Origin: an uncultured Verrucomicrobiae bacterium
GTDB lineage: Bacteria; Verrucomicrobiota; Verrucomicrobiia; Palsa-1439
DNA length: 64,000 nucleotides
NCBI GenBank assembly: GCA_963812605.1
Contig: CAWEWF010000001.1
Coordinates: 627,378 to 691,377, forward strand
Direction: 5' to 3'
Shown one piece after another: positions 5,225-35,309 of the stretch. The notes under the pieces were generated by a model that saw only the letters and a program-made list of their open reading frames with translations, was not told where the DNA came from and searched no databases. Within the stretch, counting starts at the first letter, position 1, and each line of letters opens with the position of its first letter. A program made the translations under genes and the position numbers.

Positions 5225-6319
5225 CTATTTCACCGGCTTGTCGCTCAAGAACACCGCGATGAACTTGAGCTCCGGAACATATTTGGCGATCACCGCCAGG
5301 CAGGCGGTCAACGGTGTCGCCAGCAACAGGCCGATCGGCCCCCATAGCCACGCCCAGAAGGCAATGGAGATGAGCATGGCCAGTTTCGAAATCCCAATGG
5401 TGCGGCCAAAAAAAATGGGTTCCAGGATCATTCCTACCAACGGCTCGAACACAACAAATATCCCGATAATAGCCAGGGGCTGTGTCCAGTTCGGTGACGT
5501 GGCCAAACTGACCGAGAGCGGAAGCGTCGCGGCAATCCAAATGCCGATGTAGGGAATGAACCGCAAGATCGCAATCGAGAAACCCCACAGCAACGCATAC
5601 GGCACGCCGAGGAAGAACAAACTCACCCCAATCGTTGTCGCCACACAAGCGTTGACGACTGATTGCGCGACGAGATACTGCCCGACGAGCTGGCCCGCTT
5701 CATCCAGCGCCTTGCTCGCCGAACTTCCTCGTTTGTCGCCCATCGACTGAATCATGCGAGCATGGAACTCGTCCCGTTCCAAGAGCATAAAAACCACCAG
5801 GACGATTACCAGCAGGATGTTAAAGAGCGATCCCAACACAGGTGAAACGATGGACAACAAGGAATGTGCCGTGTCATTTTGCACGGTCACCGGCACCGGT
5901 TGAGCACCTGATTTCTTGGGGGGCGTGTTGGTGGTTACGTCTCCAATCACTTCCTCCACCGTATCACGGGCCTTGGCCAGGGCCGTGCCTTTGCCGTCCC
6001 AGCGCAGGTCTTCGACCCGCTTCTTGATGTTTCCCTTGTAGGTCGGCAGTTTGTCGGCAAATTCTTTTACTTGTCCCGTGATCCCCCAGGCAATGACAAC
6101 GATCAGTGAAAGGGCCAGGAACATCACCAACACGACCGATAGGCTTCGCGGTAAACCAACTCGCTGAAAAGCCTTATCCACGGGAGCCAGGAGAAACGTG
6201 ATTAATACGGCCAGGGCAATCGGCACCGCGACCTCACGGGCCAGCGAGAGACAAACAACCACCAGCACCAGGGCGGCCAGAATGATGAGGGAAGATAGTT
6301 TTCGGGAAACGATTTGCAT
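5225..6319 (-). CDS. AI-2E family transporter
   Basis: PIALAVLITFLLAP, GVPYALLWG...LRFIPYIG, LEPIFFG, FWAWLWGPIGLLLATPLT signatures. Confidence 0.92.
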   Translation of the reverse strand: MQIVSRKLSSLIILAALVLVVVCLSLAREVAVPIALAVLITFLLAPVDKAFQRVGLPRSLSVVLVMFLALSLIVVIAWGITGQVKEFADKLPTYKGNIKKRVEDLRWDGKGTALAKARDTVEEVIGDVTTNTPPKKSGAQPVPVTVQNDTAHSLLSIVSPVLGSLFNILLVIVLVVFMLLERDEFHARMIQSMGDKRGSSASKALDEAGQLVGQYLVAQSVVNACVATTIGVSLFFLGVPYALLWGFSIAILRFIPYIGIWIAATLPLSVSLATSPNWTQPLAIIGIFVVFEPLVGMILEPIFFGRTIGISKLAMLISIAFWAWLWGPIGLLLATPLTACLAVIAKYVPELKFIAVFLSDKPVK

Positions 6320-6399
6320 TAGACGCTATTTCCGGGATTGCTCTTCTCCATATATTTCAATCTTCCACATTTTCTTATGGTAAAACAATTGGGCACACT

Positions 6400-6451
6400 C
6401 CTGACGATTTCCTAAGCAATCATCGGCTCGCTGGAGTAGGAGGTTGACCGG
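6400..6451. promoter_or_regulatory. composite site (minus: GCCGA TGATT GCTTA GGA AATCG TCAGG) plus TAGGAGGTTGACCGG at 6437
   Basis: Matches the recurrent island motif. CCCAATTG on the minus strand lies toward the AI-2E gene. Confidence 0.5.
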
Positions 6452-8130
6452 GGGGGGGGGGGGGGGGGGGGGGGGGGGGGGGGGGGGGGGAGGAGAGAGA
6501 GTGGGGATTAAAGAGTAAAAAGGATCTATGAAGGAGAAAGAATGATGAGTATGATTGCTGTAAGTAATTAGTAAAGATTAAAAGAGTAGTTTGAGTAGAT
6601 AGGGAAATGTTGAGTTTGAGGTAAGGAGATTATTTATGTGTGTTTTAAGAAAAAAATGTAGTTGAATAGATGATAGGGTTGGTTTAGTTTATTTAGGAAG
6701 GGTTTTATAGGGATGAATAATTTATTTATATGTAGATGATTAGATAGTGGATGAGTTGGTAAGTAGTTTGGATAAGAAGGGATTAATGTAGGTAAGGAAA
6801 TTAAATAGGGTGTTAAACTATGGAAGTGTAAGGAGTGGTGATAATAGGGAGAACTGAAATAGTTAGAAAGTTACTTTAGGTTAGTGAGTTTATTTAGGAG
6901 GTTTTAGGGTAAGTTTAAAGGTATTAGTTTGTAGTGGAAATGATATGGATTTTAGGTAAGGATATCACTGTTAACTGTTTTGAATATTGGGAGGTGATGA
7001 TTAATAAGTTTTTTGAAATGGAATTTTTAGGAAGGATAGTTTGTTAATATAATAGTAGTAGTTTTTAGTTAGAAGTGGTTCTGGTGGTGTTGTATAAGTA
7101 TTAGAAGGTTATTTTGGGTGAAGAAGTATGTTTTAATTTTTTTTATTAAGAGTTTTTGATTTTTAAGGGCCACAGTTATGGTAAAGTGAAGTAAGTTACA
7201 GTAATGTAGAGTAGGTGGATTGTATGATTTTTTAATTGAAAAGGGTTAGTGTAGTGGAAAAAATGAGTGAAGAATTGGTTTAGAAAAGAGTGGTGTTTGT
7301 TGAAGTGGAAAGATGGAGTTATGAATTTGAATAGAGGGTGAAGAAGTGGATATTATAATTTTAGGTGGAGATTGAAGAAAGTAAGAGTTTGGAATTTGAA
7401 ATAGTGAGTGTTGTAGAGTGTTAATAGTTTGTTTTGTTTATGAATTGTATGATGGATTTGTTTAGTAATTGAAGTTGATTGTTTATATGATATTGTTTTT
7501 GGAGAATTGATTTTAGAAAGTGGTGTTATTTATTGTGAATTAAGAAAAGTTTTTTAATTATGTTTTTTTATGTAGTAGATTAAATTAGGAATTTGGTGAA
7601 GTGATTTTATTTTGTTGAATTGTAAAAATAAGGATTATTTGTTGTTTTGTATTATATAGTGTGTAATATTTATTAATAGTTTGGGTTGAATTGTATAGTG
7701 TAATAGGATATTATATTTTTTTGTAATTTATAGTTTTAATTGTTATTTAGTTTTTTTGAATTGAGTAAGAAGTAGTGTATAAAGTTATTAAGTATGTTTA
7801 GGTGAAGTAGATTTTGATTATATTTGTTAAAGTTGATATTAATTTTGTATTTATTGTTGAAGATGATGTTATTGGTTTGTTGTAGAATGTGTATGAGTTG
7901 TAAGTGATGTTATTGTGAATTATGTAGTATTGTGTGTGATTAATTGGTGTTAAGTTTGAATTTTGTAATTAGAGTTTTAGTGGTGTTATTGTTAGTTGTT
8001 TATTTTTTGTTATTGGAATGTGTTGTTGTATAGGTGAATAGAAAGGGTAAAAGTAAAAAAGTGATGTAAAGTGAGAAGTAGTGATTGTTAAATAAAGTAA
8101 TAAATAAATTAATGAATAAAATAAGTAATA
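6450..8130. other. 41-nt poly-G tract followed by AT/G-rich, almost cytosine-free sequence (probable sequencing/assembly artefact)
   Basis: G run 6450-6490; only scattered C up to 7199 and none from 7200 to 8130; abrupt return to normal composition at 8131. Confidence 0.85.
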
Positions 8131-8135
8131 CTCCT

Positions 8136-8226
8136 TAGGAAAACTGACTAGGCTGTGGCCAGCACTGTTCTGAGGGCGCAATCAGGTTGGCTGCCAATTG
8201 TTGCACCACAAGCGTTGTGTCACGAT
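8136..8226 (+). promoter_or_regulatory. TAGGA AAACT GACTA site plus sigma70-like promoter (TTGTTG-17-CACGAT)
   Basis: Motif at 8136-8150 (composite extension to 8163 on the minus strand); -35 at 8198, -10 at 8221, upstream of the BON gene. Confidence 0.55.
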
Positions 8227-8276
8227 ACACCCACACAGCAATGCGGAAAATCGACGGAAGAAGAAAGGAAATCAGC

Positions 8277-33992: not shown

Positions 33993-34204
33993 GCTGATTG
34001 CGATCTAGGAGCTTCTCCCATGAGGATGTTTGCTCAGTCGGACTTCACCAATGGGCTGTTGGTGTCCTTCCGGCCGCTTTTCAGTTCCTTGCGGGCTTTG
34101 CCCGGTCCGTTCTAGGATATTCTCCGAGTGGAACTGGGGGTTACATCCCAGACCGAAACTAGCACGCTGCCCAATTGCGGAGTTCGCAAAACCGGGGCTT
34201 AATT
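33993..34204. promoter_or_regulatory. two composite sites (TAGGA GCTTC TCCCA at 34006; TAGGA TATTC TCCGA at 34113) and a TTGCGG..TTAATT promoter-like pair
   Basis: GCTGA TTGCG ATCTA GGA at 33993; GCCCG GTCCG TTCTA GGA at 34100; CCAATTG at 34171. Confidence 0.6.
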
Positions 34205-34230
34205 GGCTGGTAATTGAAAGGCGGATTCTA

Positions 34231-34455
34231 ATGACAACGAACGAGACATTACGTGAAGTCAGCCAAAAGAGCCGGTATCGAGGCAGAAACGTCCTTCTGC
34301 GCGGGCGAAGACGTGGACCGCATGATCAATGGCTTCCCGAAGCCAGCCTGGCAACGATCTGGCCGGTGGAGGACCAGGCGCGGTGCATTCCCATACGCTG
34401 GGTGCCTTCCCAGGCGCGCGTTGTCCCCGTGAGCCAGAAGGAGGGTGGACATTGA
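34231..34455 (+). CDS. small basic hypothetical protein (74 aa)
   Basis: ATG with GAAAGG RBS just downstream of the promoter-like elements; no recognisable family. Confidence 0.4.
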   Translation: MTTNETLREVSQKSRYRGRNVLLRGRRRGPHDQWLPEASLATIWPVEDQARCIPIRWVPSQARVVPVSQKEGGH

Positions 34456-34684
34456 TAACAAGTGCCGGCTCTCGGTGGCGTCCGCGGTTGCGAATGTCCG
34501 TTAAGACCTCGGACATTCTCCGAGATTCGGCTGCGGTCGTGTCCGAGAGTGAAATAGGCGAGGTTGCCCCATTGTTTCATCCCCATGGATGCGGGATATT
34601 TACAGCGGCAGCAGGAAATACCTCGGTATTCGGAGAGTATGCGTGCGTCAGCACAAACATCAGGAGTGCAGAACAAAGGGATGC

Positions 34685-35122
34685 ATGTATTTGAAGGATG
34701 TCATGAAGAAAAGAATCGAGGTTGTGGGTCCCGATACTCTTTTGCGAGAAGCCGCCCGCAGAATGAACGCGGACGGAATTTCTTTGTTTCCCGTGTGTGA
34801 GGGTCTGACGATGGTCGGGGTGCTTACCACGCGTGACATCACCGTGAGGGCGACGGCGCAGGGCTGTGATCCTCGGGTTACCCGCGTGCGCGCGGTAATG
34901 ATGGCCCCAACGATTTATGGCCAGGAAAACCAGAACCTTGATGAAGCGGCTGATCTTATGGAGAGATGGTCGCTCTACCGACTACCCGTATTGAATCAAA
35001 AGATGGAGTTGGTGGGAATCATTTCCTTGCGGGATTTGTCTGGAAACGCCCCACCGACGGCACGGCATTCCCCAGTTCACCGACGGAAGCGGATTTTGAA
35101 GGAGCACCGCTTGATCAAATAA
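34685..35122 (+). CDS. CBS domain protein
   Basis: [33 protein letters not shown]...[15 protein letters not shown]. Confidence 0.88.
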
Positions 35123-35147
35123 CACGCCAACGAAAGGAGATCAGAAT

Positions 35148-35309
35148 ATGTTGTATTGGGCCCTGGTATTTTTCATCATTGCCCTGGTAGCCGGAGTCCT
35201 CGGTTTTGGCGGGATCGCGGCGGCGGCGACGGACATGGCCAGGATTCTGTTTTTCATCTTTCTGGTCATATTTCTCGTGACGCTGATGTTCGGATTGGTG
35301 CGGCGTTAA
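35148..35309 (+). CDS. DUF1328 (YtjA) small membrane protein (53 aa, absent from ORF track)
   Basis: [62 protein letters not shown]. Confidence 0.92.

Follow-up and report, generated by a model that had tools for sequence, protein, structure and literature searches.

A composite promoter with two palindromic boxes and candidate NarL-family regulators in a stress-gene island of an uncultured Verrucomicrobiae bacterium

We have identified a composite promoter that recurs across an island of general-stress genes in an uncultured Verrucomicrobiae bacterium (GenBank assembly GCA_963812605.1). The window, the whole stretch of 64,000 nucleotides (nt) that was analysed, is the end of contig C1 (CAWEWF010000001.1, positions 627,378 to 691,377) of a 4.17-Mb genome in 15 contigs that is 90% complete. 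The genes, the design and spacing of the promoter, its conservation and its co-occurrence with regulator genes are established. Judged from sequence, the island genes are probably activated by their own NarL-family two-component regulators, most likely with the housekeeping sigma factor RpoD. Verrucomicrobia are abundant soil bacteria, and the two boxes, candidate regulators, predicted start sites and sigma signature given here provide a testable model for the general stress response of this verrucomicrobial group, with boxes that can be used to read stress regulons from metagenomes.

The promoter design was derived by aligning sites from the window, from a second island on contig C6 and from relatives. 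It comprises box A (CTAGGA-N5-TCCTAG), 18-19 nt, CCRA, a -35 element starting TTG, 16-18 nt and TAnnnT. The spacer contains box B, a weaker palindrome (AATCRG-N8-CYRATT) whose end lies inside the -35; core half-sites are 7 bases apart in box A and 8 in box B. With standard geometry assumed, box A would fall at about -75 to -59 and box B at about -53 to -34. Between 5225 and 35309, 12 of 17 transcription units carry a composite promoter. A composite model was built from 23 sites that lie neither in the window nor in its most syntenic relative (genome G006). A matrix seeded in the window had first picked out these sites, so the test is independent as to sequence but not as to how the sites were chosen. 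Above 18 bits the model finds 47 distinct sites in 4.17 Mb, and 0 of the 47 lie in called coding DNA, which makes up 77% of the genome. The 36-kb island accounts for 13 of them and the C6 island for 8, of which 6 belonged to the training set. Five column-permuted models gave 0-1 sites, and shifting box A by -6 to +11 nt gave 2-6. Beyond the island, the genome thus carries this design at 34 promoters or more, including the 8 in the C6 island. The -35 and -10 elements of the island promoters match those of 22 tRNA promoters, and GC at -15/-14 occurs in 0 of 13, a pattern that fits RpoD. Since these promoters look housekeeping, a NarL switch is likely in the island.

Three other lines were set aside. 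Box A as a terminator or repeat was rejected on its fixed distance to the -35/-10, its lack of a T tract and its upstream positions. Enrichment of a matrix for box A only (10 in the island, 8 on C6) was circular, having been seeded and retrained on those sites, and the composite model was used instead. Neither an exact 17-bp pattern, run over 47 genomes, nor a loose composite pattern exceeded the reversed-pattern control, and both were dropped.

Features of the window are as follows, in window coordinates.
5225..6319, minus strand: AI-2E family transporter (PF01594, E 4e-53); weak composite promoter with its -35 at 6388, 9.4 bits.
6450..8110, plus strand: poly-G run (41 nt), then 1620 nt nearly free of C (13 C in 1620 nt).
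8135..8226, plus strand: box A (8135-8151), displaced about 23 nt upstream of its usual place, and a strong box B over the -35 at 8198.
8277..8855, plus strand: BON/OsmY-like lipoprotein with OB-fold tail (PF04972; OsmY model E 2e-15, below cut-off).
8953..17526, plus strand: NdvB-like cyclic beta-glucan synthase in two open reading frames (ORFs), with GT2-like, glucoamylase-like and GH94 parts; named from its domain order.
17532..18939, minus strand: operon of DUF948, YtxH and a 163-amino-acid helical protein without Pfam family.
18962..19029, minus strand: composite promoter, box A 19029-19013, -35 TTGCGC, -10 TAAACT, 35.5 bits.
19180..20202, plus strand: Dps-like ferritin and DUF202, behind a weak promoter of 10.3 bits that diverges from the box at 19013.
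20258..20957, minus strand: putative outer-membrane beta-barrel; its composite promoter (27.1 bits) has a box at 20957-20941 that G006 retains.
20981..23422, minus strand: MASE1-PAS-PAS-HisKA_3-HATPase kinase, H and N boxes intact.
23574..23590, unstranded: box A, a near-perfect palindrome at canonical distance to the MASE1 kinase promoter, 26.1 bits.
23634..24626, plus strand: two secreted OB-fold (DUF5666/CusF-like) proteins with composite promoter, 25.2 bits.
24646..25350, minus strand: NarL-family regulator RR1, helix KTVSCY; 91% identical orthologue in G006.
25430..25446, unstranded: strong box A upstream of RR1 at non-canonical distance; conserved in G006.
25500..26105, plus strand: tandem-ACT protein (25614-26105) with composite promoter, 31.3 bits.
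26319..29924, plus strand: CheB-CheR-PAS-PAS-HisKA_3-HATPase kinase (Pfam scan).
29863..30552, plus strand: NarL-family regulator RR2, helix KTISCY; its Lys and Cys fall on RcsB K180 and S184.
30576..31144, plus strand: third OB-fold protein with composite promoter, 25.0 bits.
31159..31770, minus strand: tandem-ACT protein (31159-31650) with composite promoter, 20.7 bits.
31811..32176, plus strand: DUF2934 with composite promoter, 31.8 bits.
32217..32591, minus strand: DUF3185-like protein with composite promoter, 28.8 bits.
32597..33089, plus strand: CsbD and DUF3309 with composite promoter, 23.9 bits (TTGTCA-17-TATCCT).
33203..34021, minus strand: tandem-ACT protein (33417-33890) and 73-amino-acid Cys-rich protein with composite promoter, 30.7 bits.
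34112..34203, plus strand: composite promoter, 21.0 bits, with its -35 at 34175 and box A at 34112-34128; no recognised ORF follows.
34508..35309, plus strand: CBS protein and DUF1328 (YtjA), box A 34508-34524 at non-canonical distance.
35358..35374, unstranded: box A before the GAF kinase at non-canonical distance.
35459..37956, plus strand: PAS-GAF-HisKA_3 kinase and NarL regulator RR3 (helix KTIASH); frameshift near 36,900 before the HATPase domain.
38370..38438, minus strand: composite promoter, 30.2 bits, with no recognised ORF behind it; conserved in G006.
38860..40590, plus strand: fused HisKA_3 kinase - receiver - NarL helix-turn-helix (HTH) protein (Pfam scan).

Family calls are based on a Pfam scan of 51 window ORFs. 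The initial annotation of this DNA had described a cluster of twelve stress families, and the scan recovered all 12. Ten pass their own Pfam cut-off (AI-2E, BON, YtxH, DUF948, DUF202, DUF2934, CsbD, DUF3309, CBS and DUF1328). "Dps" passes as ferritin-like only (PF00210), the NCBIfam Dps models giving E values of 6e-11 and 7e-15 below their cut-off, and DUF3185 lies below cut-off at 20.3 vs 25.3 bits. CsbD, YtxH, OsmY, YtjA and Dps are members of SigB, RpoS and EcfG general stress regulons; the island shares these cargo families and differs in that its promoters carry palindromic operators. The regulatory genes comprise four HisKA_3 kinases (MASE1-PAS, CheB-CheR-PAS, PAS-GAF and the kinase-receiver-HTH fusion) and 4 of the genome's 11 GerE matches, the NarL-type DNA-binding domain, in three regulators and the fusion. 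The phospho-acceptor Asp is intact in the receivers of RR1, RR2 and RR3, as are the kinase His boxes; one of the four kinases is frameshifted ahead of its ATPase domain. Motif copies had also been reported before kinase and regulator genes, and all three are real (23574-23590, 25430-25446 and 35358-35374), those at 25430 and 35358 standing at a non-canonical distance. The remaining island genes include the two NdvB-like ORFs, three tandem-ACT proteins and three OB-fold proteins. Stand-alone tandem-ACT proteins are nearly confined to the family (36 of 41 genomes) and repeatedly adjoin NarL modules; they are possibly ligand-sensing accessories.

The half-site equals that of RcsB, which reads TTAGGAA via K180 and S184 (PMC5829831) and whose box is given in the available passages of a further paper as TN(G/A)GA-N4-TC(T/C)NA, at -73 to -59 for osmB (PMC7913699). 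An ungapped alignment of the RR2 HTH with RcsB 151-202 puts its Lys at K180 and its Cys at S184, and the recognition helix type KT(V/I)SCY is common to RR1 and RR2. The island thus resembles RcsB in its NarL-family regulators, the half-site TAGGA, the lysine at the K180 position, a box near -70 and targets that include, in those passages, osmotic and general-stress genes also in the RpoS regulon (PMC7913699). It differs in the N5 rather than N4 spacer, the Cys at S184 and the tandem second site over the -35. Its kinases are HisKA_3 proteins with MASE1, CheB/CheR, PAS and GAF inputs, not RcsC, RcsD, RcsF or IgaA, of which none was found among the 51 window ORFs to which that search was confined. 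Scores on the RcsB model (67.6 and 77.1 bits vs a cut-off of 235) do not indicate an RcsB orthologue, and a genome-wide search for the RcsB-type TAGGA-N4-TCCTA gave 0 exact matches. The best overall PDB match of RR2 is DevR (E 5e-28), not RcsB. Named Verrucomicrobiia make up most of the top relatives of RR1 and also supply the named homologues of another gene, and protein clusters nearest to an island protein are commonest in Verrucomicrobiota, in keeping with the lineage.

Regulator and box occur together. Among fetched loci with a readable helix, a box lies within 2.5 kb in 12/12 rows of the KT(V/I)SCY type vs 5/78 other rows. This count includes two duplicate loci and some loci retrieved because of the box, and excludes 27 rows whose helix could not be read. 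An RR2-like HTH (E <= 1e-23) is present in 8 of 18 genomes of the genus, with 18, 13, 6, 6, 5, 4, 3 and 2 strict composite matches; the other ten have 0 (eight genomes) or 2 (two), and reversed controls gave 0-4. In G006 a syntenic island of 72-80% identity has its boxes in place, and footprinting against it shows that the box, CCGATTGCG and the -10 region are kept while the flanks have diverged. The promoter at 38370-38438 and 0.37 kb downstream of it are kept there at 72%; this and the promoter at 34135-34203, both without a recognised ORF, are candidate sources of small RNAs or small proteins. The C6 island (about 100-141 kb) places the same promoter design among Ku, LigD, two YciF, BON, YflT-like, DUF948, YtxH, AI-2E and MscS genes, and loci in two further genomes, G027 and G034, likewise place stress genes behind it.

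We hypothesize that at least one of the four HisKA_3 kinases phosphorylates RR1 and RR2, and perhaps RR3. An activated dimer would occupy the strong box A and a second dimer the weak box B, and both would recruit RNA polymerase, likely with the housekeeping sigma factor, to mediocre TTG-17-TAnnnT promoters. Boxes ahead of kinase and regulator genes may provide positive feedback, the box at 23574 being a candidate. The island would then be an accessory general-stress regulon under its own NarL network. In this account protein-DNA binding, the assignment of boxes among the four NarL domains, activation, the sigma factor, the signal and any role in desiccation are inferences.

Several observations weigh against this account, in respect of the binding protein, the signal and the sigma factor. 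The training set came partly from congeners that enter the genus-wide co-occurrence count, in which kin are not independent. Composite promoters also adjoin NarL proteins with the helices KTIETH, KTVEAH and KTIEAH, and box A is unenriched in 79 loci of distant RR1 homologues (1.19 Mb; 8 matches vs 6.9 permuted), so the helix does not name the binder. The spacer of box A is one base longer than that of RcsB. It is possible, if on the doubtful side, that boxes A and B are read by two different proteins, with RR1/RR2 plus RR3 or a heterodimer as examples, or that the reader is encoded outside the window (a NarL protein of C6 or C14). The different half-site gaps of the two boxes point that way, as do the 11 GerE-domain matches in the genome and the RR3-type genes, which travel in the same module as RR2-type genes. 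On the other hand, the half-sites of box B (ATCGG, ATCAG) are within the variation of those of box A, and the C-box described below tolerates both spacings as a single box. DevR, moreover, is one protein acting on a strong primary and a degenerate secondary box in tandem, as described in the available part of PMC3177182.

As to the signal, a strong composite promoter precedes only 6 of the 12 stress families (DUF948, YtxH, DUF2934, DUF3185, CsbD and DUF3309), with weak or differently spaced sites scoring 7-11 before AI-2E, BON, Dps/DUF202 and CBS/DUF1328. The G006 island keeps the regulator, ACT, OB-fold and barrel genes, but its 70.6-kb contig lacks 11 of the 12 stress families. Six further genomes have boxes flanking a NarL-kinase-ACT module that is accompanied by few stress genes or none. 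With stress genes missing around the conserved module, the conserved core may serve another signal. The boxes could belong to a module with a specific signal (for instance metabolite or redox, via ACT, PAS and GAF domains), to which stress genes accreted recently and piecemeal without forming a general response. We regard this as unlikely, and it is not exclusive of activation by the island's own NarL regulators. The conserved unit of NarL, kinase and ACT genes with boxes and few stress genes in eight related genomes favours it, many of the 26 sites outside both islands precede hydrolases, kinases and small unknown proteins, and the C6 island adjoins a relaxase and a coupling protein. Against this, the two islands and the G027 and G034 loci between them put Dps, CBS, BON, CsbD, AI-2E, DUF948 and YtxH behind the composite promoter. 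Stress genes are thus mostly absent around the conserved module and present in C6, G027 and G034, which marks the window circuit as accessory. The window's box and its regulators are patchy, in 8 of the 18 genus genomes, and the proposal that a NarL network runs the stress response of the lineage is supported for the island, by its activator-type promoter design, RcsB-like helix, boxes at kinase and regulator genes, housekeeping-type -35/-10 elements and the lack of SigB, NepR and (by curated cut-off) RpoS in the genome, and not lineage-wide.

The window was correctly annotated as lacking sigma and anti-sigma genes: it holds none of the genome's 24 Sigma70_r2, 5 STAS, 3 SpoIIE and 1 sigma-54 matches, and NepR has 0 matches genome-wide, with control matches in Caulobacter. 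The further reading of wiring to two-component regulators rather than an alternative sigma factor is not one that a 64-kb window can give. The sigma factors of the genome are RpoD, two 284-amino-acid group-2-like factors, about 20 of the extracytoplasmic function (ECF) type and sigma-54; 19 ECF-type factors were scanned against NCBIfam, without group assignment. An RsbV/RsbW-like trio (STAS - STAS - RsbW-like, C8:201188-202613) lies directly upstream of grpE-dnaJ, with a SpoIIE gene elsewhere, all outside the window. A genome search for sigB and rpoS, as had been proposed, found no SigB, SigF or SigG over cut-off in the 90%-complete genome (best 135.7 vs 234 bits, that match being RpoD) and no RpoS over cut-off. 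It did bring out the two RpoS-sized factors (C4:11460-12314 and C1:33293-34147), RpoD paralogues without region 1.1 that score 318 and 298 bits on the RpoS model vs 293 for RpoD and a cut-off of 378.7.

These short factors have RpoD-like regions 2.4 and 4.2, with region 4.2 intact in both, and could read the same promoters, a further point against the proposed account. Because those regions are close to RpoD's, TTG-17-TAnnnT cannot separate a short sigma from RpoD. An AND gate, in which the boxes are NarL sites and the promoters are read by one of the short factors, seems to us quite improbable. It draws on the RpoS-model scores, on a short-sigma orthologue in 82 of 101 class genomes and on E. 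coli stress genes that need both RcsB and RpoS (osmB and osmC, in the available part of PMC7913699). The scores nevertheless stay below the RpoS cut-off, and the island promoters are like tRNA promoters and unlike those of the C-box regulon. Given the 82 of 101, an alternative sigma may still act across the class. Autoregulation of the short sigma via a GC-extended -10 was considered and is unsupported (such a -10 stands in 4 of the 22 regions upstream of it, each from the family). That the boxes are repressor sites is very unlikely: box B overlaps the -35 and the boxes at 25430, 34508 and 35358 are off the canonical distance, but the strong box A lies upstream of the polymerase footprint, and its fixed 18-19 nt to weak -35 elements is an activation pattern.

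The widespread stress regulon of the lineage uses another box and another NarL protein, outside the window. Among relatives, a C-box (ATGGGGT-N3/4-ACCCCAT) occurs in 25 of 56 upstream regions of stress genes. It is not in the window's island (best 10.5 bits); elsewhere in the source genome 11 sites exceed 19 bits (permuted 0-4), preceding CsbD, DUF3309 and signalling genes, with weaker ones before DUF948-YtxH and a BON operon. All 16 genus genomes in a 301-genome class sample have 4-22 copies vs 0-1 in the control. The C-box tracks a NarL protein with the helix KTVEKH: at least two boxes are found in 25/25 family genomes with the gene and 0/17 without. Outside the family, the corresponding counts are 16 of 20 genomes with a close orthologue (E < 1e-79, a threshold set after the data were seen) vs 8 of 239; in both counts kin are not independent. 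At 20 box-picked loci from 13 genomes of other families, the C-box precedes CsbD, BON, Dps, YflT, YciF-like and DUF3309 genes, and also PRC-barrel, OsmC, dodecin and NdvB-like genes plus unrelated ones. GC at -15/-14, a GC-extended -10, marks 79 of 145 C-box promoters in 13 of 14 genome groups, vs 13 of 177 generic promoters, a hint of another sigma factor for this class-wide circuit and no more than a hint because orthologous promoters were counted more than once.

The kinase adjoining the KTVEKH regulator starts with an RsbU_N-like domain in the source genome and at four other loci, with PAS kinases at others. A search with this domain returned 1958 proteins. In a fold search its matches included KaiA (Z 8.3, root-mean-square deviation 2.8 over 86 aligned residues), RsbU-N (7.4) and a stressosome protein (8.2). 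These middling scores stand among those of unrelated helical bundles, headed by a designed protein at 8.8, and are consistent with the Pfam match without proving it. The source-genome locus (C1:538,000-547,200) encodes the KTVEKH NarL protein, from which the first 48 residues are missing in frame, together with a kinase of RsbU_N-HisKA_3 layout and a second RsbU_N-HisKA_3 protein that has no ATPase domain. In another family, the KTVEKH operon includes a gene that is KaiB-like by eye (L273:8886-9239, L275:17125-17478), a 585-amino-acid neighbour and a stand-alone RsbU_N protein; the KaiB-like gene is possibly a Kai-type input. We tentatively suggest, while thinking it more doubtful than not, that Verrucomicrobiia run general stress through paralogous NarL circuits. 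One would be the class-wide C-box/KTVEKH circuit, with its box over the -35, a kinase input like the RsbU-N/KaiA-C domain of the SigB pathway and a GC-extended -10 read by the RpoS-sized sigma that most of the class has; the other would be the younger window circuit, with an RcsB-like box and housekeeping promoters, that captured the same families. If true, general stress would have a fourth architecture in addition to SigB, RpoS and EcfG.

Comparable systems exist elsewhere. The DosR gene set is the USP/hspX hypoxia set, BfmR belongs to the OmpR family and OrrA is NarL-type. The island resembles DevR/DosR in having a NarL regulator, HisKA_3 kinases, a tandem strong and weak box and regulator genes in their own regulon, and differs in its box sequence, which departs from the Dev box consensus, and in its CsbD/YtxH/BON-type targets; the Pfam scan found no USP or HSP20 among the window ORFs. 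According to the available passages, BfmRS coordinates general stress and desiccation in Acinetobacter baumannii, a species without RpoS (PMC6181384), through one regulator-kinase pair, in contrast to the multikinase island here. OrrA of Anabaena sp. PCC 7120, a cyanobacterial response regulator, controls dehydration and salt genes, with no box given in the available passages of that paper (PMC9804601). Two-component control of stress cargo is thus already known from RcsB, DosR, BfmR and OrrA, which limits the surprise of the present case. In the literature searched, mostly outside subscription papers and supplements, we found no description of a verrucomicrobial general-stress regulator or of either box.

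The C-poor stretch at 6450-8110 is the sole one of its kind in the genome. In a three-letter alignment, with each C read as T, its last 0.7 kb is a homologue of HisKA_3/HATPase kinase genes at about 70% identity (0 rows in the shuffled control). This garbled, C-to-T-converted fifth kinase gene is possibly an assembly artefact; the stretch would reflect either a one-molecule artefact in the assembly or extreme strand-specific deamination. Four low-coverage DNA runs from one study, examined over 5000-19000, left two bins of it without cover in any run and gave no contig across it, which settles nothing.

The C6 island, taken over 100,000-147,000, also includes Nramp and lies next to a TrwC relaxase, the coupling protein and a LexA-DinB/DnaE2 cassette. 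Outside the stress-gene island, at 46382-61460, the window has TadE/TadG-like genes and several ORFs that make up a very large Ig-repeat surface protein. The NdvB-like synthase (about 12,500), the GAF kinase (about 36,900) and an AcrB-type transporter (about 45,080) are each split in two ORFs; comparable splits affect LigD (C6) and SpoIIE (C1), with sequencing error or decay as candidate causes.

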